From assembly GCA_900547955.1 (NCBI GenBank), contig URIR01000003.1:11711-75710 (forward strand): a stretch of 64,000 nt of DNA. The letters run 5' to 3'. The notes below the pieces were generated by a model. The model made no database searches. It worked only from the letters and a program-made list of their open reading frames with translations, and was not told the DNA's origin. The stretch comes from an uncultured Eubacteriales bacterium (GTDB lineage: Bacteria; Bacillota; Clostridia; Christensenellales; QALW01). Position numbers and translations under genes: made by a program. Positions 1,697 to 62,317 of this stretch are shown piece after piece (positions within the stretch are counted from its first letter, which is position 1; the number at the start of each line of letters is the position of its first letter).

Positions 1697-3604
1697 TCAG
1701 ATATCAAGGTCGGCTACAAGCAGAGCGTTCTGCTCTATAAATTCGCGCCGCGGCTCTACCTGGTCTCCCATCAGTATGGTAAATATCTGGTCGGCCGCCA
1801 TAGCGTCGTCTAATGTCACCTTAAGCAGCGTTCTGGTTGCGGGATTCATGGTGGTTTCCCAAAGCTGCTCTGCGTTCATTTCGCCCAATCCCTTATAGCG
1901 CTGCACCTCGTAATTCTGTCTGTCTATGGATTCAAGATATTGGTTCAGCTCTGTGTCATTGTAAAAATAGCTTATTTGCTTTGTGCGGGTCAGCGTCACT
2001 TTGAAGAGCGGCGGCTGGGCAATGTATACATAACCCTCCTCTATAAGCTTGGGCATATGCCGGAAAAAGAAGGTTAAAAGCAGGGTGCGTATATGGCTTC
2101 CGTCCACATCGGCGTCCGTCATGCATATTATCTTATGATAGCGCAGCTTTTCAGCATTGAACTCTACGTCTATGCCGGCGCCGAATGCGGTTATCATGGC
2201 CCGTATTTCGGCATTTTGAAGCATCTTGTCCAGCCGGGTGCGCTCTACGTTTAATATTTTGCCGCGCAGGGGAAGTATGGCCTGGAATTTGCTGTCGCGG
2301 CCCTGCTTTGCGCTTCCGCCCGCGCTGTCCCCCTCTACTATGAATATTTCGCAGTTTTCTGGATGGTTGTCCGAGCAGTCTGCCAGCTTGCCGGGCAGCG
2401 CGTTGGATTCCAGCACGTTTTTGCGCCGGGTAAGCTCTCTCGCCTTGCGCGCGGCCTCCCGCGCTCTGTTGGCCGTCAGGCATTTGTCTATTATGGCCCG
2501 CGCTTCATCCGGATGCTCTTCCAAAAATGCGTCCAGCGTGCTGCCCACCACGTTATCTACCAGCGAACGGAATTCCGAATTGCCCAGCTTGGTTTTAGTC
2601 TGTCCTTCAAACTGCGGCTCCTCCAATTTAACGCTTATAACCGCTACCAGCCCTTCGCGCACATCCTCGCCCGACAGGGAAGCCTCGTTGCTTTTTAGCA
2701 TATGGTGCCGCTTAGCGTAGTCGTTGACCACTCTAGTCAAGGCCGTCTTAAAGCCCTGAAGATGAGTGCCTCCCTCGTGAGTAGCTATATTGTTTGCGTA
2801 GGTATATATTAATTCATTATAGTTGTCGTTGTACTGCATGGCCACTTCCACTATGGAGGCGCCCTTGTCTCCTTCCATATAAAGCGGCTCGGGAGTCAGT
2901 GCATTCTTGTTCTTATTTAAATATTTAACAAATTCTATTATGCCGCCCTCATAATGAAATTCATCCTGGCGCCCTTCGCCGCGTTCATCCTTAATGCGTA
3001 TGCGTATGCCTTTATTCAAAAAGGCCAGCTCGCGCAGCCGGCTGCGTATTGTCTCGTAATTGAATTCTACTGTTTCAAATATCTCGCTGTCCGGCCGGAA
3101 ACGCTCATAGGTGCCCGTGCTTTGACATTCACCTATCACGGTAAGCTCATTAATGGGGTCTCCCCGGCGGTAATCCTGGGAGTATATTTTGCCGTTCCGG
3201 CTTATCTCCACATGCAGCTCCTCGCTCAGGGCGTTGACTACGCTCATGCCTACGCCGTGCAGGCCGCCTGAAACCTTATAACCGCCGCCGCCGAATTTAC
3301 CGCCCGCGTGCAGGATGGTCATGGCTACCTCTACGGCGGGCTTATGGTATTTTTCGTGCATATCTACCGGTATGCCGCGGCCGTTGTCCCGCACGCTTAC
3401 CGTTCCGTCTGCGTGCAGAATAACCTCTATGGTATCGCAGTAGCCTGCCAGCGCTTCGTCTATGCTGTTGTCCACCAGCTCGGTGACGAGGTGATGCAGG
3501 CCTCTTTCGTCAGTAGAGCCTATATACATTCCCGGCCTGCGGCGTACTGCCTCCAGCCCTTCCAGCACCTGAATTTGAGAAGCATCGTAATTGTTTTGCT
3601 GCAT
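1697..3604 (-). CDS. gyrB: DNA gyrase subunit B
   Basis: 635-aa ORF with the N-terminal ATPase signature [25 protein letters not shown], the Toprim [14 protein letters not shown] motif and the C-terminal [15 protein letters not shown]. Confidence 0.98.
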
Positions 3605-4424: not shown

Positions 4425-6143
4425 TTAGGGAATCAGCTGGGCGTTGCGCCTGAGCAGCTCCATATACGAAGGGCCTACAATTTGTCTGAGCGCGCCTTCC
4501 TTAAAGGGCGAATCCAGCCCCATTTCCTCAAGCAGCTGAGGATAGGTGAACTGCGCGCCCTTTTGGACCAGCTTCATATATGTCTCCAGTCCCGCATTAT
4601 AATCCTCCCGCATTATATTGAGCAGCATGAACGCCGCAGACTGAGCCAGGCAGTAATCTATATAATAGAAGGGGTGCATGTAGATATGCAGCTGCCGCTG
4701 CCACCAGCCGCCCTTTGCGAAATAGCATATATCGCCGTAATCTATATCGGGACGGTAGGCGCTTTCCAGCTTCAGCCATTCCTCATGCCGCTCCTGTGGA
4801 GTCAGCTCAGGATTGTCGTAAACTATGTGCTGGAATCTGTCCACCATGCAGCCGTAGGGCAGGAAGATTATTGCGTCTGCAAGATGCTGATAGATGAATT
4901 TATCCTTTTTCTCCCCGAAAAACAGTCCCATATAGGGGTAAGTCATAAATTCCATGCCCATGGAATGAATTTCGGCTATATCGTAGGAGGGCTCTTCCTG
5001 CTCGATATATTTGACCTTTCGAAGGGATATATAGCTGTTAAGGGCATGCCCGCATTCGTGGGTGAGCACCTCTACGTCTCCTGCCGTGCCGTTGAAATTG
5101 GCAAAAACAAAGGGCGCCATAAAGTCGGGGATGCTGGTGCAGTAGCCTCCGCTGGCCTTGCCGTCCCTGCTCAGAACGTCAAACAGCCCGTTGGAGAGCA
5201 TAAATTCTATAAATTCAGCCGTGAGGGGAGAAAGCTCGGTATACATTTTCCGGCCCTTCTCGAATATTTCCTCAGGGGTTCCCTGAGGGCGGGGGTTGCC
5301 CTCCTTAAAGCTCAGGGAGCGGTCCCATATCATTGCGTCCTCTATGCCGTTGCGGTCGTGCTGAAGCTTTATAAGATGGGTAGCCAGGGGCACTATCTCT
5401 CTGCGTACCTGCTCGCAAAAGGCTTCGGTTTCCTTCCGGCCGTAGTCGGCCCGTTTAAGGCGGCAGTAGGCCATGTCGGTAAAGCTGTCAAAACCCAGCT
5501 TTTTGGCCATGCGGGTGCGGGTTTTCACCAGCTTGTCAAATATTTCGTCCAGTTTTGCGCCGTTTTCTTCCATGAATTTGCTTTCTGCTTCCCATGCGCG
5601 CCGGCGTATTTCCCTGTCCGGGTTTTGTTTAAAGGGTGTGAGCCGGCTTAAATTGACCGTTTGCCCGTCAAAGGGAATCTGAGCCGAGGCTATGAGCCTT
5701 TGATATTCGCTCTGAAGCCGGTTCTCTTCAGCCATATCTTCGGCAATTTCGGGAGAAAACGCCTTTTGGGCCAGCCGTGCGTTAAGAAAATAGGTTTCTC
5801 CCAGTTCTCTGCGAGCCAGCTCCTGAAATGGAGAATTCATTACTGCGCGGCTGAGGTCGGTGGAAAGCTGCTCCGCCGAGGGCATGTTCTGGTCGTAATA
5901 GTCGTTTTCCGCGCTGTAGAATTCGTCCTGGGTATTTATAGTGTGACGGATATAGCAGATATTGTACATGGTAGATAATCGGCGCTTAAAATGGTCCGCC
6001 TGCTTGAGCAGCTCCAGAAATTCCTCGGGGCTTTGCGCGGAACAAAGCTTTTCAGGGATGGAGGAGATTTCGGGCGGTATGGGCGTAAGAGGCACTCTTT
6101 GATATTGATAATCGTCAAATTTCATTGGGTTAATCCTTTCCAT
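4425..6143 (-). CDS. pepF: Oligoendopeptidase F family (M3B) zinc metallopeptidase
   Basis: 572-aa ORF with an HExxH zinc site (LTHECGHALNSY). Length and overall pattern fit M3B oligoendopeptidases. Confidence 0.88.
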   Translation of the reverse strand: MERINPMKFDDYQYQRVPLTPIPPEISSIPEKLCSAQSPEEFLELLKQADHFKRRLSTMYNICYIRHTINTQDEFYSAENDYYDQNMPSAEQLSTDLSRAVMNSPFQELARRELGETYFLNARLAQKAFSPEIAEDMAEENRLQSEYQRLIASAQIPFDGQTVNLSRLTPFKQNPDREIRRRAWEAESKFMEENGAKLDEIFDKLVKTRTRMAKKLGFDSFTDMAYCRLKRADYGRKETEAFCEQVRREIVPLATHLIKLQHDRNGIEDAMIWDRSLSFKEGNPRPQGTPEEIFEKGRKMYTELSPLTAEFIEFMLSNGLFDVLSRDGKASGGYCTSIPDFMAPFVFANFNGTAGDVEVLTHECGHALNSYISLRKVKYIEQEEPSYDIAEIHSMGMEFMTYPYMGLFFGEKKDKFIYQHLADAIIFLPYGCMVDRFQHIVYDNPELTPQERHEEWLKLESAYRPDIDYGDICYFAKGGWWQRQLHIYMHPFYYIDYCLAQSAAFMLLNIMREDYNAGLETYMKLVQKGAQFTYPQLLEEMGLDSPFKEGALRQIVGPSYMELLRRNAQLIP

Positions 6144-6334: not shown

Positions 6335-6426
6335 GGGGCCGGCGTTTGGCAGGCGCCGCAGGCGCCTGCCTGGGCCGGGCGCTGCCGCGCCCGGCCTGCG
6401 GCCGTACGGCCGCAAACGCCGGCCCC
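6335..6426. repeat. GC-rich cloverleaf palindrome (four-way junction), member 1
   Basis: Outer stem ggggccggcgttt (6335-6347) pairs with aaacgccggcccc (6414-6426). It encloses three perfect hairpins: ggcaggcgcc-gca-ggcgcctgcc (6348-6370), ggccgggcgc-tgcc-gcgcccggcc (6373-6396) and tgcggccg-ta-cggccgca (6397-6414). Confidence 0.85.
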
Positions 6427-6502: not shown

Positions 6503-6594
6503 GGCGCCCCTGCCGCCGCGCAGCGTGCGGCGGCAGGGGCGCCCGGGCGCGCGTAAAACGCGCGCCCTCCTTTAAAGGGCGGGGCGTCCCCGCG
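6503..6594. repeat. Two perfect GC hairpins plus the CCTTTAAAGGGCGGGGCG motif
   Basis: A 17-bp stem ggcgcccctgccgccgc / gcggcggcaggggcgcc at 6503-6543, a 9-bp stem gggcgcgcg-taaaa-cgcgcgccc at 6545-6567, and the motif at 6565-6591. Confidence 0.8.
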
Positions 6595-6710
6595 ATTAAC
6601 GCATAAGCCTTCTAGAAAAGAAATTTTCAACCGTTTCAGCTTAAAAAACCTTTGTATTCTCCTTAAAACCCGTTTGTAATAAAAAATTTAAGAAAAATTA
6701 AAAAAACCGC

Positions 6711-6739: not shown

Positions 6740-6923
6740 AAAAAAGCCGCAAAACGCGCCGAATGCGGCAAAACGGTATGAAGCGGGAGGTTGCCGGAAT
6801 AATCCGGGTAATTTCCGCGGACAATTGTCCGATAATCGGACGACAGGCCAAATGGCCGCTTTAAAAATTTAAAAGCGGCACACACGGAAACGTGTATTTG
6901 AGCTTACAAGGAGGTTTATTTTA

Positions 6924-23756: not shown

Positions 23757-24269
23757 ATGCCTGGTAACAGAAAGCTTAACCGTCCCAGCGACCAGAGGAA
23801 CGCAGTACTTCGCGGACTGTGTACCGCTCTTATCGCTAATGGACGCATAGAGACCACCGAGGCCCGCGCCAAGGAGGTTCGTAAAATAACCGAGAAGCTG
23901 ATAACCCTTGCTATGCGCGATTATGCCGGCGAGGTAGAAGTGACTAAGCAGGTGCGCAACGAGAAGAAGCAGCTTGTGGACGAGACCTTTAAGACGGATA
24001 CGCCTGCCAAGCTGCATGCCCGCCGTCAGCTTATGGCATATCTTTATAATGTGCCAGAAAAGAGGATGGAAGGGGAGAGCAAGCTGCTTTACAAGCAGAG
24101 GCTCAAGGAAGTCAATAATCCCGTTGTGGAGAAGCTTTTCCGTGAGCTGGCGCCTAAATATGCGCAGCGCAAGGAAGAGAAGGGCACGGGCGGCGGTTAT
24201 ACCCGCATAATTAAAAAAGGTCCTCGCCGCGGCGACGCGGCCGAGATGGTCATTCTCGAGCTTATTTAA
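23757..24269 (+). CDS. rplQ: 50S ribosomal protein L17 (extended, 170 aa)
   Basis: The bL17 core is present ([17 protein letters not shown]..., [19 protein letters not shown]). There are about 50 extra residues in two internal stretches compared with the ~120-aa Bacillus protein. Confidence 0.95.
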
Positions 24270-24307: not shown

Positions 24308-24509
24308 TTTAGGAGCGCCTAAGCAGTTAAAGGGCCAGGGGGGCGGCGCGCCGCCCGGCCGAGCCAAAGGCTCGGCCGGGCCAGGCGGCCCGCATAATCC
24401 GGGGGCTTTTAGCCCCCGGATTATGCGGGCCGCCTGCTTTTGGCGCCCGTAAGGGCGCCAAAAGGGCGCGCCGCCCCCCTGGCCCTTTAACTGCTTAGGC
24501 GCTCCTAAA
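24308..24509. repeat. GC-rich cloverleaf palindrome (four-way junction), large member
   Basis: Perfect 45-bp outer arms at 24308-24352 and 24465-24509. They enclose three abutting perfect hairpins at 24353-24381, 24382-24436 and 24437-24464, with no unpaired junction nucleotide. Confidence 0.9.
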
Positions 24510-24528
24510 TTTATTTATCAGAATTTAT

Positions 24529-24948
24529 CTATACCCAAAAGAAGCCGGACTGCATGCTGCAGATCTGGCTTTTTCCTGTATTGGGATATAATTTGCGCTT
24601 CCTCTTTTGAAAGCTCTGTCTCCAAAAACGCGTTCCCATATCAGGACGAATATCCAGCAGTTCATTTGGATTCACTTTAAGAACGTTGCAGATAGAAGCG
24701 AGAATGTCTACGTCGGGGCGGTTAAGGCCCTGCTCCCAGTTGGATACGCGCGCATTGCTCACACTAATAAGCTTGGCAAATTTGATACCGTTGCGTATAA
24801 AGCGGGCATATTTCCGGCGGTATTTAAAAAATGCTTGATGGCCGGCGCACGATATATTCGGAGCAGTATAAGGCAATTTGCCAGGCGCTGGGGGTGGGGC
24901 TGAAACATTTTTAAATATTAAATTGGCATAGCCGGCTTCAAAAAGCAA
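24529..24948 (-). CDS. XRE-family helix-turn-helix protein (start uncertain, possibly decayed)
   Basis: The central stretch IKFAKLISVSNARVSNWEQGLNRPDVDILASICNVLKVNPNELL fits the Cro/C1 HTH pattern. The roughly 40-aa N-terminal extension has no recognisable feature. Confidence 0.5.
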   Translation of the reverse strand: MLFEAGYANLIFKNVSAPPPAPGKLPYTAPNISCAGHQAFFKYRRKYARFIRNGIKFAKLISVSNARVSNWEQGLNRPDVDILASICNVLKVNPNELLDIRPDMGTRFWRQSFQKRKRKLYPNTGKSQICSMQSGFFWV

Positions 24949-24975
24949 GCAAACGGATAAAGAATTTCTTGATGA

Positions 24976-26362
24976 GGATTACAGAGCCAGGGCGACCTTG
25001 TCTCTGCCCGCAGCCAAGGAGAAACTGGCGAGCGACATAATGTTTGTATATCCACAAGCGCGGATGTAGAGGAGGTGATGGTTGAAATGCTTTTTAATCT
25101 TAAGGCGCACGCTGAAAATTCGCAGGCCAGCGTTAAGGTCGGCGTCGTTATATTTAATAAGCAGGCTAACGTAACCTGTGTCCTTACCGATATTCAGACG
25201 GGCTATGAGGATATTTTAGAGGGCATCAGGACGGATATAAGCAGCGGCACCAATACTCATGCCGGTATCTTAGCGGGCAAAAAAATGCTGGATGAGGATT
25301 GCGCGGTGCCGGCCAGGCGAAAATATCTGATTTTTATAAGCGATGCGATAACATATATATAACGAAGAGCCTGCTGCTATTCCATCGCAGTTTGCGGAAA
25401 ACGCCGTATTTGCTGGTCCGGACGCATGGGCTAATAAATATCAGAATAATAATCCTCCAAGCGACTGTAATGAATTTTTGACTTCCGTCGGCGTTCAGAT
25501 TGAGGCGGATGGAGATACCTTTGAAGCAAACTACGGAGCAAAGGAGCCGTTTATCCCCTATTCAGAACGCAGCGGGCATGCTATGACGGTAGCTAAGGCG
25601 CTGTATAATACGGCCATGGCTTATAAAAGCGCCCAGGATGCGGGATATACCTGCTATGCCATAACAGCTTCCGCGTCGGCAGCCGCCTCCGAGCAATATT
25701 CATGGGGCCCTTCCTTTATGAATTATCTGGCTCAGGGAGAGAAGGTATCCTTTGACGGAATATACAATGAGGCAATATATCTTTTGGATGCGGGCAGCAG
25801 GGTTATTGACGTAATAGGCAGCGGGTAAGGCCAGTATAGGGACGGAGAGCTTATTGATAAGGGATATAATTTTGTAAACAGTCCGGAGACGCTGGAATTG
25901 AAGGTAGGGGAAGATAAATACGCGCTGACCCGGCTGGAGAATAAGGTATATGCCTTTGGAGAGGAGAACGGACAAAATCAATATCCCTTCATACTGCGTT
26001 ATTATCCCGAGGGGACTGCCTCAGAGCCGCGCGAGCATTTAGTTTGGGAAATTAACGCGCCGGTGGATATAACCAGACGGGCGAGCCTTACATATACTGT
26101 GGAGCTTGCCGACCCGCAGTCTGAGGCAGGGCTGTACACGCAGCTTTATACCAATGAGGAGGCAATTATATATCCTGTGGATACATGCGGCAGCGAAGGC
26201 GAGGGAGAATATTTTGAAAGACTTGCGGCAGCTTACAGAATTTTGCCTATGGAGGAGGAGCACCCGACGGGAGACGCCGGAGTTCTTCTGCTATGCTGCA
26301 TATTGGGCGTATGCGTCTCAGCCGTAATTTTGCTTAAAGTCTTAAAGGTCAGAAACGAATAG
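24976..26362 (+). pseudogene. Remnant of a vWA-domain, sortase-anchored surface protein
   Basis: Three ORF fragments (25075-25362, 25478-25828, 25898-26362) read through as one protein if two lesions are repaired. One is a frameshift at the (AT)4A tract at 25353-25361; the other is an in-frame TAA at 25826-25828. vWA motifs are present (SGTNTHAGI, LIFISDA). The C-terminus is HPTGD followed by a TM segment and a basic tail. The signal peptide and the DxSxS motif are missing. Confidence 0.75.
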
Positions 26363-26459
26363 AGGCCGGGGAGCAATTAGAAAACATTTAGTGCAGGAAA
26401 AACTCCTGGTCAGGGCGGGCCGCACGGCTATACTCCTGGATAAAGGCTGACGCTGCCAG

Positions 26460-26501
26460 AATAATGGACCGTCCATAATAGGATGGTCCATTATTTTTTT
26501 T
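26460..26501 (+). terminator. Intrinsic terminator after the vWA remnant
   Basis: Stem aataatggacc / ggtccattatt followed by a T-run. Confidence 0.65.
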
Positions 26502-26509
26502 GCGCCGGC

Positions 26510-26996
26510 GGAACCGTTCCGAGAGACTGATGAAATTGTACTGAGCTGGAAAAAGAGAAGAAAAGGGAAGCGGAACGTGAGAAAAATTTGTCTAGTATAT
26601 GAACAATTATAAGCATACTATATTTGGATATAACCATTTATTCCCTGTAAAAACCTGTGTAAAAAATCGTGAAAAGCAATAAAATTTAAAAAAAATCAGA
26701 AAAAAACGCAAAAATCTATTGCTTATCCACAGGTTTTTTGGTATCATTTATATTGCCGTCAGCGATTAGAGTAGCGCGGCGGCGATTTATAGTTCGGAGC
26801 TTAAAATGCTTTAAAAATATGCAAATCGCCCTTATATGGGCGTTTTTAGCCATTTAGGCCAATGAATAAATCTAGGGATTGTGCCTTATTTTAATAGGTC
26901 ATACACCATATAGAGTTATCAACAGCCTGTGGAAAAGTTTTGGACTATAAATTGTACTTTTTACTCGGTTAATATTTTTCTGGGGGTTGTTGAAGC
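26510..26996. promoter_or_regulatory. oriC-like AT-rich spacer with DnaA boxes upstream of dnaA
   Basis: One perfect DnaA box TTATCCACA at 26723-26731. TTATCAACA at 26916-26924 faces TGTGGAAAA at 26928-26936 (complement TTTTCCACA). Long A/T tracts lie around 26660-26715. Confidence 0.6.
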
Positions 26997-28416: not shown

Positions 28417-28504
28417 CAACCCGGCGGCGCCGCGGCCTGCGGCCGCGGGCCGGGCCTTTTGGCCCGGCCGGGCAGGCGCAAAGCGCCTGCGCGCCGCCGG
28501 GTTG
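28417..28504. repeat. GC-rich cloverleaf palindrome (four-way junction), member 2
   Basis: Outer stem caacccggcggcgc (28417-28430) pairs with gcgccgccgggttg (28491-28504). It encloses cgcggcc-tgc-ggccgcg (28431-28447), ggccgggcc-tttt-ggcccggcc (28448-28469) and gcaggcgc-aaa-gcgcctgc (28472-28490). Confidence 0.88.
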
Positions 28505-28838
28505 ATGATATTGAAAAACAAGTTAAGCTGCCGTCCTTTCGGTATGCGTTGATACTGTCTGCCGGCAGTCGTGCGCCCGCACGATAAGGCAAAATATGAG
28601 GAATGCCTTCCGTCTATTCGGGCGGAGGGCAATTTTAAATTTAGGCTTGCAACAATTGTTTTTATCATTTATGGTATGAACATATAAAGATTTTGAAACT
28701 CATTTATATCAGACAGGATAATAACTCTGTTTTTTGCCAGCAGAATATCAGATTAAAAGACGTATTTCACTTTCGGTTTTTGGTGGCAGGGACGCATTTT
28801 TTTATGAGTTGAGGAATTAGAATTTAAAAGGAGGGATA

Positions 28839-29114
28839 GACAATACAGTCAAAGCGCAATGCGTTTTTCATAATGCCCGTCGCGTCCGCTTTGCTGCGCG
28901 GTCATAAAAATATGCCCGGTATGTCTTTAATTGCGCGCCGCGCGGGTGTCAACGGGTTCTTATGCAAAAATCTCCGCCCGCATAGAAAAAGGGAATCTTC
29001 CAGCTTTGCAAGGCGGCAGGACGCAGAAATACCAGGCGTATTTTAAGGACGACAACGCAGCAAAACCGAGCAATTCACACTTTCGTCGGCGTACTGTACT
29101 CTGATTGTATTGTC
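28839..29114. mobile_element. MITE family 1, full-length copy (276 bp), TA-flanked
   Basis: Termini GACAATACAGTCAAAG... and ...CTGATTGTATTGTC are inverted. TA lies on both sides (28837-28838 and 29115-29116). By eye it is roughly 80% identical to the copy at 34174-34457. Confidence 0.8.
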
Positions 29115-29123
29115 TAAGTAAAG

Positions 29124-30605
29124 ATGAAAAATAAGCTTTTAGGTCTGCTGCTCTGCGGCTTGCTGTGCATAGGGCTGTTTCCGGCGCAGGTATTCGCCGC
29201 GGGCGTAAATGAGGGAATTATTGTAAACGGAGTGGATATTACTACGGCTCAGGATTATACCGTAGTTTGCGGTGAAGGCAAAGCTGTATATAATCCGCAG
29301 GAGCAGAAGCTGACGCTGGACAACGCGGAAATCACGGTAGGAGCGAAGGCGAGTTCTACTGCCGGCGAGCGTTACGGCGTCGCTATACAGGGCGGGATAA
29401 CTGGTACAGTCGAGGTTGTTTTGAATGGAAAAAACAGCATTATCCTGTCTGATACGCAATACAAAAATATGGGAATATGGGCGGCAGGCTCCAGCCTTAA
29501 GTTTTCAGGCGGGGGAAGCCTGGAGGTATCTCTTTATAATGATTCATTTCCCTCTATAATACAGGGCAGGAATCTGGAATTTGAAAAAGTAGATATTACC
29601 GGCAGGCTTTTGAACGAAGAAAGCCCTTGCGGTTATGCTGTCCGGACGACTGGTACGGTAATAAGCAATCAGTCCGCTTTTGAGATTACCGGCTTTGAGA
29701 CAGCGATTGATACCGGCTCGCTTGCTATGAGGAACGGCAGCAGCCTAAATGTTAAAACTTCTGCAGAATACGGAATGGGGGTATTTTCCGGGGATATACT
29801 TGTTGAAGATTCGCAGATGGAACTTCAGGTTCCGGATACCGGACTTTACTGCCTGGCTGGTAATTTGACAGTCAGCCGGAGCAGTATTGTTTGCTCGCAG
29901 GCGAACGTTGGTATGTATGCCGAAGAAGGGATAATAACGGTCAAAGAAGATTCCATGCTGAATTTAAATAACAAAATTTATGGCCTGCGAATTTATAACG
30001 GCAGTTTATCCATTAGCGGCGGCGTAATTCATGCGTCAGGCAGCAGAGGAGGAATCCAGGTTCTGAATGTGAAGGAGGATGAAACAGACACGCCGACTGT
30101 AGCTATCTTTATGGCGCCTGATTGGGCGGAAAAGGCCGGCGGAAAAGCCGCCGCGGCAGAGTGCTTGTATGACGACGGATATGACGAGCCGTATCCTGTT
30201 TTTATTACAACCTTTATTTCTGCAGAAGACAGTATACTGAATGAGGATTTAAGCAACGCGGTTACGTCAGTACAAATCCAAATCAAGGGCGCCGACTACA
30301 GCAGGGTGGAAGAAATGATAGAAAAGGCAAAGGCCCTGAATAAAGACGAATACAAGGATTTTTCAAAGGTGGAAGCGGCGATAGACGCCGTTATATATGG
30401 CAAGAATATTAAGGAGCAGGGCTTGGTAGACGATATGGCGGAGGCGATTGAGGATGCCATATCCTCGTTGGAAAAGAAGCTGGATACTGATATTCCGCAG
30501 ACGGGAGATAACGGTATGATAATTTGGATTGCTGTTATGCTCGCGGCAGGCGCAGGATTGTCCGGGACGGTAATCTGCGGCAGAAAGATAAAACGCAGCA
30601 GATAA
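29124..30605 (+). CDS. Secreted cell-surface protein with C-terminal sorting signal (IPQTGD + TM + basic tail)
   Basis: 493 aa; signal peptide MKNKLLGLLLCGLLCIGLFPAQVFA; repetitive beta-rich body; a helical ADYSRVEEMIEKAKALNKDEYKDF module; sortase-type C-terminus. Confidence 0.85.
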   Translation: MKNKLLGLLLCGLLCIGLFPAQVFAAGVNEGIIVNGVDITTAQDYTVVCGEGKAVYNPQEQKLTLDNAEITVGAKASSTAGERYGVAIQGGITGTVEVVLNGKNSIILSDTQYKNMGIWAAGSSLKFSGGGSLEVSLYNDSFPSIIQGRNLEFEKVDITGRLLNEESPCGYAVRTTGTVISNQSAFEITGFETAIDTGSLAMRNGSSLNVKTSAEYGMGVFSGDILVEDSQMELQVPDTGLYCLAGNLTVSRSSIVCSQANVGMYAEEGIITVKEDSMLNLNNKIYGLRIYNGSLSISGGVIHASGSRGGIQVLNVKEDETDTPTVAIFMAPDWAEKAGGKAAAAECLYDDGYDEPYPVFITTFISAEDSILNEDLSNAVTSVQIQIKGADYSRVEEMIEKAKALNKDEYKDFSKVEAAIDAVIYGKNIKEQGLVDDMAEAIEDAISSLEKKLDTDIPQTGDNGMIIWIAVMLAAGAGLSGTVICGRKIKRSR

Positions 30606-30667
30606 CCAAAGGGCATAATAAGAGACTAAAAAGAGAGCCGGGGTATTTCTCCGGCTTTCTTTTTGTA

Positions 30668-30771
30668 TGCGCGCGGGCAAAGACATATCCGGGCGTATTT
30701 TTAAGACCGCGCAGCAAAGCGGACGGGGCGGGCTCTTAAGCAAAAACGTATTGTGCTTTGAATGTATTGTC
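30668..30771. mobile_element. Rearranged or partial MITE family 1 copy
   Basis: atatccgggcgtatttttaagaccgcgcagcaaagcgga...aaaaacgtattgtgctttgaatgtattgtc matches the reverse complement of the left third of the full copies, including the terminal repeat. Confidence 0.6.
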
Positions 30772-30985
30772 CAGGCAATAACCGCATATATAATAATTTT
30801 ATATGCGCTTTCCCCAAATAGGGTTTTATCACGCAGTAAAATAGAAAATGCGGGCAAGAAACAGCCTGCTCCTTACCCGCTTTTTTCTCAGCCATATATG
30901 GCTGAAATTCTGTTTAATTATGTTATGGATATTGTTTTGTTTGCGCAGTTTTCTGGGTTAATCATTATTTAGACTATCTGGCGGG

Positions 30986-34173: not shown

Positions 34174-34457
34174 GACAATACAATATAATACAATCAAAGT
34201 ACAATGCGTTTTTGGATAAATCCCGCCGCATCCGCTTTGCTGCGCGGTCTTTAAAATACGTCCGTATGTATTCAATCAGGCGCCGCGCTGCTGTCAACGG
34301 GCTCTTAAGCAAAAATCTCCGACCGCAGAGGAGGAAAATTATTCGGTTTTGTAAGGCGGCAGGGCGCAGAAATACCGGGCGTATTTCAAGGACAACAACA
34401 CAACAAAACCGAACAATTCACACTTTGGGCGGCGCATTGTACTTTGATTGTATTGTC
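34174..34457. mobile_element. MITE family 1, full-length copy (284 bp), TA-flanked
   Basis: 27-nt terminal inverted repeat tagacaatacaatcaaagtacaatgcg / cgcattgtactttgattgtattgtcta. It is perfect apart from a 10-nt duplication in the left arm. TA lies on both sides. Confidence 0.85.
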
Positions 34458-36012: not shown

Positions 36013-39000
36013 TTACACCATAACCGTGCCGTCAAAGACCTTTACTGCGTTGCCTGTCATATACACCTCGCCCGTATCGGTATACCTTATCTTAAGCTCT
36101 CCGCCCAGCAGCTTAACGGTTATATCGGTATTTTTATCGCAGAGTCCGTTTTCTACGGCTGCTACGGCCGCCGCGCAGGCGCCTGTGCCGCAGGCCCAAG
36201 TTTCCCCGCTGCCCCGCTCCCAGACGCGCATTTTAAGAGTAGCGCGGTCTATAACCTTGACAAATTCGGCGTTGACCCTCTCGGGGAACAGCTCGCTGTG
36301 CTCAAACTGAGGACCAATCTTTTCCAGCGGGAAGAAATCTACGTTTTCAACAAATACTACGCAGTGGGGATTGCCCATGGAGACGCAGGTTATATGGTAA
36401 TTTTCCCCGCCTATATTTACCTGCCGGCCTATGACCTTATCTCCCTCTAATTTTACCGGCACCTCCTCCGGCCTGAGCTGCGCCGCGCCCATATTCACTC
36501 TGGCCGAGGTGGCTACGCCGTTCTGCGTATACACCCTTATGCTCTTTATGCCCGAAAGGGTTTCAAGGGTCATAACCTCTTTATTAACCATATGGTTGTC
36601 GTATAAATATTTGGCGACGCAGCGGGACGCATTGCCGCACATCCTGCCTTCGCTGCCGTCCAGATTGAACATGCGCATTTTGGCGTCCGCCTTGGAGGAG
36701 GGGCATATTAATACCACGCCGTCGCCTCCTACTCCGAAATGCCTGTCGGCCAGGCGTATGGACAGCCCCTCCGGGTTGTCTATATGCTGCTCAAAGGCGT
36801 TAAAATAGATATAGTCGTTTCCGCAGCCGTGCATCTTGGTGAACTTGAGCTGGGTGCGCTTGGTGCGCATATGGTTGATGTCCACCAGCTCGCAGTTCAA
36901 TTCGGAATAGCGGCTCTTTATGCTGTCGGCTACGGCGTGAGCCGTGTCTATGGAGGTCAGGCAGGGTATGCTGCGCTCTACCGCCTTGCGCCGTATTTTA
37001 ACGCTGTCCCTGCCGGGCAGGCGGCCTTTGGCGCTGGTGGAGATAAGATAGTCTATTTTGCCGCTCTCTATAAGGGTGAGGGTGTTGACGTCGCTTTCGT
37101 GTATCTTGCTGACTATCTCGGCCTCCATGCCTGAGGCCTTTATAATTTCAGCCGTGCCCGCCGTAGCGTATAATTTAAAGCCCAAATCATAGAATTTCTT
37201 GGCTACTGCCGCAATCTCGGGCTTATCAGAATCGCGCACCGAGAGGAATACGCCCTTTTTGGAGGAGCTGACCGCCTTGCGCAGCTTATAGCCCGCCGCA
37301 ATAAGCCCTTTATAAAGCGCTTCCTCCAGGGTTCCCGCCAAGCCCAGCACCTCGCCCGTGGATTTCATTTCGGGCCCAAGATGGCTGTCCACGTTGGCCA
37401 GCTTTTCAAAGGAGAATATGGGCACCTTAACCGCGAAATACGCGCCCTGGGGATAAAGCCCCGTGCCGTAGCCCATATCGTAGAGCTTTTCGCCCAGCAT
37501 GGCGCGGGTGGCCAGCGCCACCATGGGTACGCCCGTTACCTTGCTTATATAAGGCACGGTCCGGGAGGAGCGCGGGTTGACCTCTATTACATAAAGCTGG
37601 CCGTTATATATGACGTACTGGATGTTTATAAGCCCCTTGGTATTCAGAGCCAGAGCCAGGCGGCGGGTGCAGTCCACTATGCGGCTGACCATGCGGTCGC
37701 TTAAGTTGTAGGCGGGATATACGCTTATGGAATCGCCCGAATGCACGCCCGCCCGCTCTATATGTTCCATTATGCCGGGGATGAGTACGTCCTCCCCGTC
37801 GCAGATGCCGTCTACCTCTATTTCCAGCCCCATAAGGTATTTATCTATTAATACCGGATTCTCTATGCCCTGGGAGAGGATTATCTGCATGTATTCCCTG
37901 ACGTCCGAATCGTTAAAGGCGATTATCATATTCTGGCCGCCCAGCACATAGGAGGGACGCAGCAGCACGGGATAGCCTATTTCATTTGCGGCGGCCAGCG
38001 CGCCCTGAGCGTCGGTTACCGAATGCCCCTTGGGCCGCTCTATCTTTAATTCCTCCAGCAGTTCGTCAAAGCGTTCGCGGTCCTCCGCCCGGTCTATGCT
38101 GTCCGCGCTGGTGCCTAAAATGTTTTCTCCCCGTTCAGAAAGGAACCTGGTCAGCTTGATGGCCGTCTGGCCGCCGAAGGCTACTACGACGCCCCAGGGC
38201 TTTTCTGTTTCAAGCACGTTGCGCACGTCCTCGGGAGTGAGGGGTTCAAAATAAAGCCGGTCGGCGGTGTCAAAGTCGGTAGAGACGGTTTCGGGGTTGT
38301 TATTGACTATAACCACTTCAAAGCCGGCGTTTTTAAGCGCCCAGACGCAGTGCACCGAGGCGTAGTCAAATTCTATGCCCTGGCCTATCCGGATGGGGCC
38401 GGAGCCGAATACTATTACCGTCCGCTTGCGCTCGGGCAGCTCCTGAATAAATTCCTCAGCCTCGTTTTCCTCTTCAAAGGAGGAGTAGAAATAGGGGGTT
38501 TCGGCGCTGAATTCGGCCGCGCAGGTATCCACCATCTTAAATACCGCAACAGCGGGATTCTCTACCCTTTGCCCCGAAAATTCCTCTATGACGCTGTCTA
38601 AAAAGCCCATGCGCTTGGCGCGCAGGTAGGTCTCTCTGTCAAAGCCCTGCTTAAGGGTGTTTTCCATATCTATGATGTTTTGAATCTTATATAGGAACCA
38701 TAGGTCTATCTTGGTTATGTCGTGTATTTCCTCGGGGGAAACTCCCTTCCTGAGCGCGTCGGCCACGATAAACAGGCGCTCGTCGGTAGTTTCATGCAGG
38801 CGGGAGAGCGCTTCCTCCCGCGGCAGGTCGTATTTTTTGGAATAGAGGCTCTTAAGCCCTATTTCGGCGCCCCTTACCGCCTTTAGCAGGGCTTCTTCAA
38901 AGGTAACGCCTATGGCCATAACCTCGCCCGTGGCCTGCATCTGGGTGCCTAACTGGCGTTTGGCGTATACGAATTTATCAAAGGGCCATTTTGGCAGCTT

Positions 39001-40062
39001 AACTACTACGTAATCCAGCGCAGGCTCAAAGCAGGCGCTCTTGCCCGTTATGGCGTTGGCGATTTCGTTGAGATTATAGCCTATGGCTATCTTGGCGGCC
39101 ACCTTGGCTATGGGATAGCCCGTGGCCTTGGAGGCCAGCGCGCTGGAGCGGGATACGCGGGGATTGACCTCTATTACGGCGTATTCAAAGCTCTCGGGAT
39201 TGAGGGCGAACTGGCAGTTGCAGCCTCCCTCCACCTTTAGGGCGGAGATAATGTCCAGCGCCGCCGTGCGCAGCATCTGATATTCCTTATCGGCTAAGGT
39301 GACGGCGGGCGCGACTACTATTGAATCTCCCGTATGTATTCCTACGGGGTCTAAATTTTCCATGCTGCATATGGTTATAACGTTGCCTGCGCCGTCCCGC
39401 ATGACCTCGAATTCAATTTCCTTCCAGCCGGCAATGCATTTTTCCACCAGTATCTGGCCTATGGGGGAGAGCCTTAGGCCGTTGACGGCAATATCCGCCA
39501 TTTCCTCGTCGTTATTGACTATGCCGCCGCCGCTGCCGCCTAGTGTGAAAGCTGGGCGGATAATGAGGGGATAGCCTATTTCACGGGCGAAGGAGAGCGC
39601 GTCCTCAAGGGTGGTCACTACTCTGGAGGGAATGCAGGGCTGATTAATGCTCTGCATGGTGTCCTTAAACAGCTGGCGGTCCTCGGCTTTATCTATGGTT
39701 TCAGGATTGGCCCCCAGCAGGCGCACGCCCATCTGCTCCAAGAAGCCGTCCTTGGCTAACTGCATGGAGAGGGTCAGGCCCGTCTGGCCGCCTAAGGTGG
39801 AAAGCAGGCTGTCCGGGCGCTCCTTTTCTATTATGCGCTTTATTACGGGCAGGGTTAAAGGCTCGATATATATGCGGTCGGCCATAGCGCTGTCCGTCAT
39901 TATGGTGGCCGGATTGGAATTAACCAGGACTACCTCCAGGCCGTCCTCCTTAAGCGCGCGGCAGGCCTGGGTGCCCGCGTAGTCAAATTCGGCCGCCTGC
40001 CCTATGACAATGGGCCCGGAGCCTATAACCATGACTTTTTTTATGCTTTTGTTAAGCGGCAT
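36013..40062 (-). CDS. carB: Carbamoyl-phosphate synthase large subunit fused in frame to diaminopimelate epimerase
   Basis: Single 1349-aa ORF. Residues 1-1064 are a full-length CarB (two ATP-grasp halves plus an MGS-like tail). Residues 1065-1349 (nt 36870-36013) are a full DapF (FTKMHGCGNDY, GNASRC, ERGSGETWACGTGA). Confidence 0.93.
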   Translation of the reverse strand: MPLNKSIKKVMVIGSGPIVIGQAAEFDYAGTQACRALKEDGLEVVLVNSNPATIMTDSAMADRIYIEPLTLPVIKRIIEKERPDSLLSTLGGQTGLTLSMQLAKDGFLEQMGVRLLGANPETIDKAEDRQLFKDTMQSINQPCIPSRVVTTLEDALSFAREIGYPLIIRPAFTLGGSGGGIVNNDEEMADIAVNGLRLSPIGQILVEKCIAGWKEIEFEVMRDGAGNVITICSMENLDPVGIHTGDSIVVAPAVTLADKEYQMLRTAALDIISALKVEGGCNCQFALNPESFEYAVIEVNPRVSRSSALASKATGYPIAKVAAKIAIGYNLNEIANAITGKSACFEPALDYVVVKLPKWPFDKFVYAKRQLGTQMQATGEVMAIGVTFEEALLKAVRGAEIGLKSLYSKKYDLPREEALSRLHETTDERLFIVADALRKGVSPEEIHDITKIDLWFLYKIQNIIDMENTLKQGFDRETYLRAKRMGFLDSVIEEFSGQRVENPAVAVFKMVDTCAAEFSAETPYFYSSFEEENEAEEFIQELPERKRTVIVFGSGPIRIGQGIEFDYASVHCVWALKNAGFEVVIVNNNPETVSTDFDTADRLYFEPLTPEDVRNVLETEKPWGVVVAFGGQTAIKLTRFLSERGENILGTSADSIDRAEDRERFDELLEELKIERPKGHSVTDAQGALAAANEIGYPVLLRPSYVLGGQNMIIAFNDSDVREYMQIILSQGIENPVLIDKYLMGLEIEVDGICDGEDVLIPGIMEHIERAGVHSGDSISVYPAYNLSDRMVSRIVDCTRRLALALNTKGLINIQYVIYNGQLYVIEVNPRSSRTVPYISKVTGVPMVALATRAMLGEKLYDMGYGTGLYPQGAYFAVKVPIFSFEKLANVDSHLGPEMKSTGEVLGLAGTLEEALYKGLIAAGYKLRKAVSSSKKGVFLSVRDSDKPEIAAVAKKFYDLGFKLYATAGTAEIIKASGMEAEIVSKIHESDVNTLTLIESGKIDYLISTSAKGRLPGRDSVKIRRKAVERSIPCLTSIDTAHAVADSIKSRYSELNCELVDINHMRTKRTQLKFTKMHGCGNDYIYFNAFEQHIDNPEGLSIRLADRHFGVGGDGVVLICPSSKADAKMRMFNLDGSEGRMCGNASRCVAKYLYDNHMVNKEVMTLETLSGIKSIRVYTQNGVATSARVNMGAAQLRPEEVPVKLEGDKVIGRQVNIGGENYHITCVSMGNPHCVVFVENVDFFPLEKIGPQFEHSELFPERVNAEFVKVIDRATLKMRVWERGSGETWACGTGACAAAVAAVENGLCDKNTDITVKLLGGELKIRYTDTGEVYMTGNAVKVFDGTVMV

Positions 40063-46851: not shown

Positions 46852-46856
46852 AATCA

Positions 46857-46988
46857 GAATGAAGAAAATTTGCGCGGGATAAAGCGCGTTTGCAGTAGAA
46901 ACGTACCGGGTGGTACCTGGAAGCAAAGCAACGCGGCAGGACGCAAATTTTATGCATTCTGGCCACGCAGTTTCTTGTAAACTTAGGG
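46857..46988. mobile_element. Partial copy (right part) of repeat family 2
   Basis: aagcaaagcaacgcggcaggacgcaaattttatgcattctgg...tttcttgtaaacttaggg aligns with 52650-52713. It ends 10 nt before the rpsF -35 box. Confidence 0.65.
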
Positions 46989-52035: not shown

Positions 52036-52437
52036 TAATCGTCTTTATTTTGCTCTGCTTTTTTATGCCGCTGGGGATTGCTGCATAAGCGCTTTATTGC
52101 TCTGCCTGCGCGGCAAAGCGGTCGTTTATATTTATAGCAAAATATATTATGTGCAAGCTTTATTTTAAGCGAGTTGATTAAAAAATGCAATTTGCTTTGG
52201 TTGAGGCAGCGCTTATGTATGGCTGAGCCGTGCTTTGGGTGCCGCGGTATGTTTTCGAGCGCCTGTTTTAAGGCTGGGAGCGAGGGGGAGCGAGGAACCT
52301 TTTTGTAATAAAGTTGGCTGCGGAGTATAGGCAGAATTTTCAGAACGCCGAAACGAGCCACCGCTGAAACATTGAAATAATACAGTAAAATAAACGCTTG
52401 TTCGGCTTAAGAAGCCATTATATTTAGAACGCGCGTA

Positions 52438-52713
52438 CCCTCAGTTTACAAGGAACTACACGACTTAAAACGGGACAATTTCTTCATTTTCTGCGTTATA
52501 CTCAATCAGTATACTCATAAGTAGCGATTTCTTGGTCTGCCTTGAAAATGAAGAAATCCTTTTTCTTTGAGCTCTACAGAGTCAGAAGGCATAAAATTTG
52601 CGCCAGGTAAAGCGCGCTTGAAGGAAAAATGTATCCGGGCGTACATGGAATCAAAGCAACGCAGCAGGACGCAAATTTTATGCCTTCTGACCGTCTTCCT
52701 TGTAAACTGAGGG
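52438..52713. mobile_element. Repeat family 2, full-length MITE-like element (276 bp)
   Basis: 18-bp perfect terminal inverted repeat ccctcagtttacaaggaa (52438-52455) / ttccttgtaaactgaggg (52696-52713). An internal 22-bp perfect inverted repeat is gtcagaaggcataaaatttgcg (52581-52602) / cgcaaattttatgccttctgac (52670-52691). Confidence 0.8.
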
Positions 52714-53053
52714 TGCTGAAATAGCAAAAAAATAACAGCCGAAAAAAGCTGCTTGCATAAATATACACTAAAGCTGTTTAAAAATAAATCCGAGCAGAAA
52801 GAGAGACGGCAAAATTAAGCCGCCATGCAGACAGTAATGTGAAAAAATGCTTAATCCCTTTCTCTGCGCGCTTTAAAATGAAGACCGTATGCGTCGCAGA
52901 TTGTAACGGCCAAATATGTTTATTTCTTGTCTTAATGATAACACCCCAAATATTAAAAGTCAATACCCACACGAAAAATAATTTAAATTGTTGATAACTT
53001 TTTGTGAATATTTATAAATGCGCAGCAATATATCATTTTTATTGGAGCGTATA

Positions 53054-61972: not shown

Positions 61973-62287
61973 TTCCCGCCCGTTTTGCTTTATGCTCCTT
62001 GGGAGCATAAAGCAAAACAATAATGAGGCCGGCTTAAGCCGGCCGGGTATGGCCGCGGCCCATATCCGCCGCGGCCATACCTCTTAATTTTACCCACCCG
62101 CGCGCCGCTGAGAAACGTTAGGGCGCCGTCAGGCGCGGGACCGGGGGCGGGCGGGAAAGATAAAGGCCATCAGGCACCGGTTTAGGCGCCTGATGGCGTA
62201 CGGCTTAAGCCGTACTCATTTTTTGCCGCTAACCCATCCGGGGAATTTCCCGGATGGGTTAGCGGCTGTCCGGCCTTACGGCCGGAC
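61973..62287. repeat. Array of at least 8 distinct perfect GC-rich hairpins
   Basis: Perfect stems at 61982-62018 (17 bp), 62027-62044 (18-nt palindrome), 62046-62081 (13 bp), 62166-62197 (10 bp), 62198-62215 (18-nt palindrome), 62225-62266 (18 bp) and 62268-62287 (8 bp). An enclosing stem ttcccgcccg (61973-61982) pairs with cgggcgggaa (62148-62157). Confidence 0.88.
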
Positions 62288-62317
62288 GGGGTGGGATAAG
62301 CCCCCGGATTAAAAAAC

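Follow-up and report, generated by a model that had tools for sequence, protein, structure and literature searches.

How a long DNA palindrome can arise, and how its stems stay perfectly paired without passing through G-U intermediates, is an old question, and it is raised again by the sequence that follows the ribosomal protein gene rplQ in a Eubacteriales bacterium. The stretch analysed here, termed the window, comprises 64,000 nucleotides of the forward strand of contig URIR01000003.1 (positions 11,711 to 75,710; assembly GCA_900547955.1), and the host lineage, an abundant and uncultured one of the gut, is a Christensenellales genus near Candidatus Neochristensenella. At window positions 24308–24509 lies a cloverleaf of 202 nt, in which three hairpins are enclosed by a long outer stem. 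This rplQ cloverleaf belongs to a family of GC-rich three-hairpin repeats that is dispersed and lineage-specific, and comparison of the copies in public metagenomes makes the old question testable. The comparison points to a nested-palindrome repeat that is probably kept perfect, and probably grown, by intrastrand template switching.

The outer stem of the rplQ cloverleaf has 45 bp, its arms at 24308–24352 and 24465–24509 being 100% complementary. The inner ~26 nt of the left arm (TTAAAGGGCCAGGGGGGCGGCGCGCC) hold the core common to the family and its outer ~19 nt are flank-derived, while the outer part of the right arm probably corresponds to the left flank copied in inverted orientation, and strain-specific rearrangements start exactly at the end of this arm. 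The 112 nt inside the outer stem are made up of three abutting perfect hairpins, and no base is left unpaired at the junction. These hairpins are H1 (24353–24381; GCCCGGCCGAGCC-AAA-GGCTCGGCCGGGC, 13 bp, loop of 3 nt), the hypervariable middle hairpin H2 (24382–24436; 26 bp, loop of 3 nt, here TTT), and H3 (24437–24464; CTTTTGGCGCCC-GTAA-GGGCGCCAAAAG, 12 bp, loop of 4 nt). All 96 pairs are of the Watson-Crick type, with no G-U pair. A preliminary description, made from the letters of the window, had proposed exactly this geometry, and both a pairing check and the folding of the two strands, which it had suggested, bear it out. The minimum free energy (MFE) of the plus-strand RNA was −223.3 kcal/mol, versus −112.4 ± 5.3 kcal/mol in dinucleotide shuffles (z = −21), and that of the minus-strand DNA, which folds as the mirror of the four-way junction, was −143.8 kcal/mol (z = −23). 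None of 200 shuffles folded as well, for the RNA fold or for the DNA fold, and the predicted MFE structure was exactly the four-way junction for RNA and DNA alike. The preliminary description envisaged either a multi-branch RNA or a DNA cruciform resembling a Holliday junction; on the cruciform, which would be recognised by extrusion from supercoiled duplex and by cleavage with junction-specific nucleases, the in-silico fold of single-stranded DNA is what bears here.

Could such a structure be the product of an assembler? Many contigs end in the cloverleaf, one scaffold has an N gap inside it, and in one public contig (L109, positions 1–45) a Nextera-type adapter (TCGTCGGCAGCGTCAGATGTGTATAAGAGACAG) is fused to its middle, an untrimmed-adapter artefact at an assembly break. 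We searched for same-species contigs by means of the identical L17 protein and of DnaA, and reached two sister species through the L17 protein cluster. The identical L17 protein was found on 22 contigs from other samples, and most of those shown end 70–160 nt past rplQ, that is, within the cloverleaf; one 97-kb contig of this set reads through it, and the DnaA look-up gave additional contigs that cross the cloverleaf or start within it. In total, the rplQ cloverleaf is complete in at least 15 independent assemblies from various studies, assemblers and three species. They include L001, L101–L104, L105, L106, L108 and L110 for the same species, and L119–L123 and L127–L135 for the sister species, where some contig names suggest long-read assembly. 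Since independent assemblies and sister species reproduce the cloverleaf, the latter with species-specific, compensated differences, an assembly artefact is rejected, and we regard its probability as negligible. The breaks nevertheless matter in practice. Cloverleaves interrupt short-read assemblies beside rplQ and dnaA, which are marker or origin-proximal genes, and coincide there with structural variation, with the consequence that the contiguity of metagenome-assembled genomes (MAGs) and strain comparison in Christensenellales are affected.

Searches of relatives revealed that the cloverleaf is not unique to this locus. A topology scan, which required a perfect outer stem (≥6 bp) around two or more abutting perfect hairpins, each with a stem of ≥6 bp, gave three matches in the window (6335–6426, 24308–24509 and 28417–28504) and further ones in the related contigs L001, L008, L088, L094 (two) and L095/L097. 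Beyond the three cloverleaves of the window, no fewer than four additional loci are occupied in related contigs from this genus, and in every match of the scan the inner hairpins number exactly three. The nearest genome records are those of Candidatus Neochristensenella gallicola and of a MAG with 98% L17 identity. The remaining 78 loci found belong to Christensenellales/Clostridia with 57–65% L17 identity, and their 1,148,335 bases did not contain a single match to the scan. In these distant relatives, rplQ is followed by an ordinary hairpin and T-run terminator in all 21 loci inspected (21/21), and arrays of abutting perfect hairpins are nearly confined to the lineage of the window. A regular expression for the core pair did match other Christensenellales loci several times, each time in GC-rich sequence that does not fold as a cloverleaf.

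With regard to the individual copies, the second cloverleaf of the window follows dnaA (28417–28504) and has an outer stem of 14 bp around hairpins of 7–8, 9 and 8 bp. The third (6335–6426), located between a divergent M3-peptidase gene and the S10 operon, represents a subfamily 2 with the outer stem GCCGGCGTTTG/CAAACGCCGGC, which was found again at L111 4582–4668. A metagenome scan with the H3 hairpin returned two contigs, L093, which is the right half of a sister-species rplQ cloverleaf, and L094, from the same genus, which carries two cloverleaves, by trxB and glmM, one of them with the hairpin order reversed and hence in opposite orientation. L111, from a related species, possesses orthologues of both L094 cloverleaves in addition to its subfamily-2 copy. 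Finally, L095/L097 show a cloverleaf behind a HAD-hydrolase gene that lies upstream of the window region. Of seven family copies, five are located 3' of genes.

The copies share three features, two of which, a core and a hairpin, recur at several loci in either orientation. The core, GGGGGCGGCGCG / CGCGCCGCCCCC, is present at both ends of the rplQ copy, of the two L094 copies (L094-1 and L094-2), of the HAD copy and of the L008 dnaA copy, with the consensus GGGGG(G)CGGCGCG ... CGCGCCGCCCCC. The shared hairpin, (G)CTTTTGGCGCCC-loop-GGGCGCCAAAAG(C), corresponds to H3, the most conserved module of the family, which is also found in L008, L094 (two copies) and L111. The third feature is a GC-rich first hairpin. 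The middle hairpin ranges from 9 to 27 bp and is hypervariable in sequence, to the point of being unalignable by MAFFT, but its pairing is invariably perfect and RAAAGC-WWW-GCTTTY is a frequent apex. It is the shared core and the shared hairpin that are the real links between the rplQ cloverleaf and other loci. The preliminary description had instead linked it to a hairpin array through the 13-mer AGCCCCCGGATTA, which recurs at 62299–62311 (plus strand). That match is real, but the 13-mer stands beside, outside, the array at 61982–62287, and with 0.18 matches expected at up to one mismatch it is only mildly unexpected, which makes it weak evidence of kinship. This array and another at 6503–6600 consist of abutting GC-rich perfect hairpins and are not simple three-hairpin cloverleaves; the former includes an imperfect outer stem (62019–62041 / 62201–62223), and two contigs from other samples, L090 and L091, end inside it.

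The rplQ and dnaA copies occupy orthologous sites in species of ~87% DNA identity, and the element at the rplQ site is orthologous in at least three species. In the third species, the rplQ orthologue has kept H3 and the core, whereas its H1 (17 bp) and H2 (27 bp) are wholly different, yet perfect. Another spacer, between glmM and pflA, harbours the subfamily-2 cloverleaf of L111 at 4582–4668 and, in L094 (2960–3030), an unrelated imperfect hairpin of ~22 bp; hairpin elements have been replaced there between species at a fixed position.

How is perfect pairing preserved while the sequence changes? Among 12 folded instances, 901 Watson-Crick pairs were counted versus 11 G-U pairs, the latter mostly at the outermost edges. 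Between the rplQ cloverleaves of the window and of species 2, five pairs differ in both partners, and the proportion of paired cells is 98.7%; in a control in which the partner was slid, only 34–53% were paired and 0–1 two-sided pairs were obtained. In the trxB-locus cloverleaf, L094 and L111 differ by 12–13 two-sided versus 0–2 one-sided changes over 88 pairs. Single-arm differences are mainly rare within-species variants. Because the rplQ-site element is orthologous in at least three species and its differences are compensated on both arms, perfect pairing appears to be actively maintained, as a property of the DNA. The preliminary description had offered recent origin or active maintenance of pairing as the reason for the absence of mismatches. 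Of these, maintenance is retained, while recent origin does not hold for the core and applies solely to the outer portion of the rplQ stem.

Strains also differ in the orientation of hairpin loops, the whole loop being swapped for its exact reverse complement. Here, the haplotypes defined on the dnaA element are informative, namely haplotype A (the window, L105 and L106) and haplotype B (L101–L104 and L107–L109). The rplQ H2 loop reads TTT in all haplotype A assemblies and AAA in all haplotype B assemblies. Similarly, TGAAA alternates with TTTCA in the H1 loop and TTT with AAA in the H2 loop of the trxB-locus cloverleaf, while at the glmM locus AA alternates with TT in the loop of a terminator hairpin and TT with AA in the H2 loop. 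Although loops at perfect inverted repeats are prone to being assembled in the wrong orientation, orientation tracks haplotype perfectly across different assemblers, which speaks for real inversions. Taken together, the near-absence of G-U pairs, the loop inversions and the inverted duplications of flanks described below indicate that it is in the DNA that the pairing arises.

The outer stems vary in length, and they do so by duplication of a flank. In the dnaA cloverleaf, the outer stem measures 14 bp in haplotype A versus 37 bp in haplotype B, which owes the extra length to a right flank equal to the reverse complement of the left one (GGGCGGGGAGAATAAGCTAAATAACCCGGCGGCGC). At the rplQ site of the third species, two other haplotypes are found, X (L008, L127, L134 and L136) with an outer stem of ~14 bp and Y (L128–L133 and L135) with one of ~50 bp, the latter owing to a left flank that matches the reverse complement of the right flank at 49/50 positions. 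In these two polymorphic cases, the longer form exceeds the shorter by 23–36 bp. The left flank of haplotype X is homologous to that of the window, and its right flank departs from the window's beyond CCCCCCTGGCCC. As haplotype X retains an ancestral-type left flank and differs on the right, the 45-bp stem of the window is best read as a third extension, which would have run the other way, with the left flank as the source of the right. Variable positions of the haplotype Y arms occur in all combinations: L129 and L131/L135 are matched at both of them, and L128, L130 and L133 have one C·A mismatch each, as is expected if a mutation in one arm is later copied to the other. Natural populations keep the intermediates of the process, with short and long stems, flipped and unflipped loops, and single-arm mismatches beside converted arms.

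The cloverleaves are, in addition, hotspots for deletions, rearrangements and assembly breaks at the DNA level. Both differences between haplotypes A and B (2.0–2.4 kb; 24512–26509 and 28504–30944 in the window) begin exactly at the right edge of a cloverleaf, and the 2.4 kb following the dnaA cloverleaf in the window is missing from haplotype B. In L110, a 95-nt deletion between GCGCCGC microhomologies removed the left arm and all three hairpins of the dnaA cloverleaf. The genes next to the rplQ copy are themselves variable. Downstream of the XRE-family gene that follows it, a vWA-domain gene (25075–26362) is split in the window, and also in L105/L106, into three open reading frames (ORFs) of 95, 116 and 154 aa; sister species have one 509-aa vWA gene at the same place, and the window version is probably a frameshifted pseudogene. 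In L131 and L135, of the sister species, a TnpV-family gene (3114–3491) replaces the HTH_26/vWA genes right of the rplQ cloverleaf, which makes the rplQ-dnaA spacer a variable islet with mobile-element genes.

These observations would find a common explanation in intrastrand, or snap-back, template switching during DNA synthesis, in which one arm is copied from the other, so that the arms are homogenised and the hairpin loops inverted. The nascent strand, having just copied the core, would fold back on itself and be extended on its own upstream sequence. Synthesis past the base of the stem would then add the inverted copy of the opposite flank, replacing one flank and yielding a longer outer stem. 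Finally, the strand would go back to the template, sometimes further along, which would leave a deletion. The known outcomes of template switching include the creation of perfect stems, the repair of base pairing, the homogenisation and expansion of inverted-repeat arms and the inversion of spacers (PMC8794818, PMC5941160, PMC8604942, PMC13100816). A template-switch product is defined by multi-base changes that correspond exactly to the reverse complement of nearby sequence, in the form of arm homogenisation, spacer inversion and arm extension, and all three are present in the family, as are two-sided changes. Perfect arms combined with multi-base compensation, spacer inversion, arm expansion and deletions form the published signature of replication-associated template switching. 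The cloverleaves thus resemble products of quasipalindrome correction, in their perfect inverted repeats, multi-base compensation, loop inversion and arm expansion. The cases described to date are mostly single short hairpins (PMC8794818, PMC5941160, PMC8604942, PMC13100816), whereas here the process would recur on a nested multi-hairpin family and have left extensions of 23–36 bp as within-species polymorphisms. Intergenic palindromic repeats of bacteria and template-switch mutation are each well known, and the rplQ locus appears to unite them, in a repeat family with a constant four-way junction. The family stands out by this architecture and by the unusual clarity with which populations record the upkeep and growth of a palindrome.

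The patterns themselves are read directly from the copies, and from them we infer the enzymology of template switching. Several points weigh against this reading, beginning with the fact that the process is reconstructed from end states. Similar patterns could in part result from strong selection for pairing acting alongside gene conversion, or from recombination involving diverged alleles, and assembly errors at perfect inverted repeats could underlie some of the loop orientations and G/C-run lengths. That the inner hairpins are always three, and that the H2 apex RAAAGC-WWW-GCTTTY is semi-conserved, hints at a constraint, such as a protein or RNA function, which would not be predicted if mutation alone were at work. 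Template switching leaves the dispersal of the family unexplained, no transposase, RAYT (REP-associated tyrosine transposase) or target-site duplication having been found in the sequence examined. Lastly, the copy at 6335–6426 lies between divergent genes, so that it can have no 3'-end role there.

The position of the rplQ copy bears on what it might do when transcribed. The rplQ gene (23757–24269, plus strand), coding for ribosomal protein L17 (170 aa), is the last of the alpha operon rpsM-rpsK-rpsD-rpoA-rplQ, and its stop codon is 38 nt before the cloverleaf. On the minus strand, the ORF of an XRE/HTH_3-family regulator (24529–24948) converges on it, with its stop codon 19 nt from the right arm, and the cloverleaf sits between the two convergent stops. 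A GC-rich stem-loop structure right after a stop codon and between convergent genes is reminiscent of intrinsic terminators, including the non-canonical ones that lack a U-tract. However, an intrinsic terminator is taken to be a single GC-rich stem-loop of ~5–14 bp, with a loop of 3–8 nt and a U-tract immediately 3', and a canonical terminator was rejected on both counts. The element is a multi-branch four-way junction with stems of 45, 13, 26 and 12 bp, no U-tract adjoins it, and a consensus scan flags only the internal hairpin H2. In this respect, the preliminary description was right to set it apart from ordinary terminators. Its statement that there is no U-run on either strand is accurate insofar as the cloverleaf is not adjoined by five or more consecutive U and the minus strand has no U-run, but the plus strand after the outer stem reads TTTATTTATC, a U-rich tail (AAAUUUAUUUAUC in haplotype A, GUUAGGAUAAAU in haplotype B), and a terminator-like hairpin ending in T5 lies further on (24544–24574, plus strand; an 11-bp stem containing a single G-U pair and a single bulge, with an A-rich run ahead of it). 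This hairpin, ~35 nt downstream of the cloverleaf, is the sole canonical-looking terminator after rplQ. It is missing in haplotype B, which is common although it has no canonical terminator downstream. Because the rplQ copy lies between convergent stops and its transcript would fold extremely stably, a role of the predicted transcript structure as a barrier to 3'-exonucleases or to read-through is plausible.

An alternative to template switching would be that the cloverleaf is selected as an RNA that, in an unusual way, terminates transcription from both sides, stabilises 3' ends or insulates the alpha operon and the XRE gene from each other, with selection exerted on the transcript. Such a role would account for its closeness to both stop codons, for the preference of the copies for the 3' side of genes, for the stable fold with compensated stems, and for the success of haplotype B after loss of the downstream terminator. 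Selection on a transcript would nonetheless be expected to tolerate G-U pairs, which are nearly absent from the family (11 vs 901) and wholly absent from the window copy, and it sits poorly with the missing U-tract, with the occurrence of both orientations, with the copy between divergent genes (6335–6426), with whole-loop inversions and inverted flank duplications, which are DNA events, and with the lack of any match to an Rfam family. At the locus, Rfam yielded no credible match, whether at gathering or at permissive thresholds (the best sub-threshold score being 30.7 bits against a threshold of 216), ARAGORN called no tRNA or tmRNA, and an Rfam RNA or tRNA-like element was rejected on this basis; Tandem Repeats Finder reported nothing there. 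We consider selection on the transcript unlikely as the explanation, and an RNA role can coexist with DNA-level maintenance as a secondary effect. A non-autonomous transposable element, related to miniature inverted-repeat transposable elements (MITEs) or to REPINs, with a transposase elsewhere in the genome and the outer stem as its terminal inverted repeat, is likewise rather unlikely. Copies at at least six loci in both orientations, with a conserved inverted core at their ends, speak for it, as do the subfamily-2 copy that is present in the glmM-pflA spacer of L111 and missing in L094, and the other MITE-like repeats of the genome. Yet no target-site duplication was seen at any copy inspected, the flanks being instead inverted copies of each other; parts of the outer stem are locus-specific and demonstrably copied from local flanks; and the orthology of the rplQ and dnaA copies at ~87% DNA identity excludes recent movement. 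The called genes adjoining the copies (XRE, the fragmented vWA gene, one coding for an unknown 493-aa protein, and housekeeping genes) comprise no transposase, integrase, recombinase, RAYT or Y1_Tnp-type gene. BLAST of the rplQ cloverleaf against plasmid and phage records gave no match, and a pattern scan of viral contigs gave none for the H3 hairpin and a single, unrelated one for an H1-like hairpin (L092), which is not a cloverleaf. A MITE-like past of the family is possible.

A third kind of explanation invokes proteins that recognise the junction. The cloverleaf might be a structure-specific site for recombination or protein binding, resembling a Holliday junction and recognised by a lineage-specific protein, with a function as a hotspot of cassette exchange or near the origin. 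The variable segments, whose starts coincide exactly with the right edges of the copies at rplQ and dnaA, the different gene sets right of the rplQ copy, with TnpV in some strains, the bracketing of dnaA and its DnaA-box cluster by two copies, and the constancy of the three-hairpin architecture agree with this idea. We nevertheless hold it to be very improbable, given that no integrase or recombinase is found nearby, that the pairing is perfect and devoid of the extrahelical bases typical of attC-type sites, that the copies by trxB, by glmM and by the HAD-hydrolase gene are remote from dnaA, and that hairpin-induced replication errors explain the breakpoints equally well. An integron attC site was rejected specifically, since attC stems are imperfect, with extrahelical bases and R/L boxes, and no integrase is among the neighbours. 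A role in oriC was rejected too, the DnaA boxes being clustered upstream of dnaA (26723–26936) and not at the cloverleaves, other copies of which are distant. A bolder variant, which we regard as a long shot, would see in the cloverleaf a self-propagating four-way-junction DNA module, recognised by a lineage-specific, structure-specific enzyme that drives hairpin flipping, palindrome growth and the exchange of gene segments. Such a module would explain the constant three hairpins, the semi-conserved H2 apex and the variable DNA exactly at the right edge.

The family shares traits with several known classes of repeats. Repetitive extragenic palindromic (REP) units are imperfect palindromes with an asymmetric conserved GTAG motif, are separated by linkers and are tied to RAYT transposases; they cluster in mosaic arrays as bacterial interspersed mosaic elements (BIMEs), and REP/BIME sequences can stabilise upstream mRNA. 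Like the REP/BIME sequences of Enterobacteria and the REPINs of Pseudomonas, the cloverleaves are extragenic, GC-rich, palindromic, multi-copy, lineage-specific, found in both orientations and mostly 3' of genes, and they likewise cluster in arrays, with three cloverleaves and further hairpin arrays in 64 kb. By contrast, their units are perfect, linkerless, always three in number and set inside a long outer stem to form a four-way junction, they lack GTAG, and no Y1_Tnp-type gene is among the called genes adjoining the copies. Bacterial MITEs that fold as long hairpins are highly structured when transcribed and may affect the expression of neighbouring genes. With MITEs of the Correia, ERIC/IRU, RUP and BOX types, the cloverleaves have in common that they are short, non-coding, dispersed and bounded by inverted repeats, and their terminal inverted repeats (GGGGGCGGCGCG / CGCGCCGCCCCC) are conserved between copies. 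Unlike MITEs, which have element-specific terminal inverted repeats and target-site duplications, they show no duplication at the copies inspected and draw the outer part of their stem from the local flank. One subfamily-2 copy differs in presence between L111 and L094, the rplQ and dnaA copies are orthologous across species, and no autonomous element was found in the limited sequence examined. The inverted terminal repeats (ITRs) of parvoviruses such as adeno-associated virus (AAV) are the telomeres of linear single-stranded genomes, where they form a three-way T and are nicked at a defined site by the Rep nickase. They too consist of small palindromes nested in a larger one, giving a branched junction with flip and flop orientations; the cloverleaf, however, forms a four-way junction on a chromosome, each of its hairpins flips on its own, and it has no known Rep-like gene.

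A second, unrelated repeat family is present in the window. It is MITE-like, with elements of ~110–280 nt bounded by terminal inverted repeats of 19–27 nt (e.g., AATACAATCAAAGTACAATGCG / CGCATTGTACTTTGATTGTATT), and was located at 28837–29116, 34187–34454, 52437–52714 and 46855–46961, as well as at L008 15230–15503. The L008 copy, downstream of dnaA, is 79% identical to 52438–52714, and the window has no copy at that place. In the gyrB-gyrA spacer (~1500–1575), a 48-nt deletion polymorphism between GCCCGCGC direct repeats (L097 12022 vs L095 12022–12070) starts 2 nt past a perfect hairpin, AGTCCCCGCCC-loop-GGGCGGGGACT.

With regard to the surroundings of dnaA, DnaA boxes cluster just upstream of the gene, at 26649–26936, with a perfect TTATCCACA at 26723 and near matches. 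The gene is not followed by dnaN. As gyrB-gyrA run leftward from 3604 and the S10 operon rightward from ~6770, the switch of gene strand and skew is ~20 kb away from dnaA, within the AT-rich spacer containing the cloverleaf at 6335–6426. The sole Rfam match at gathering score in the window is an S10-Clostridia ribosomal-protein leader (6770–6843, 40 bits), which confirms that the operon starts downstream of the hairpin arrays. Finally, a 1349-aa ORF on the minus strand (36013–40062) combines the large subunit of carbamoyl-phosphate synthase with a C-terminal diaminopimelate-epimerase domain (residues ~1120–1345), and represents either an unusual fusion or a missed stop codon.

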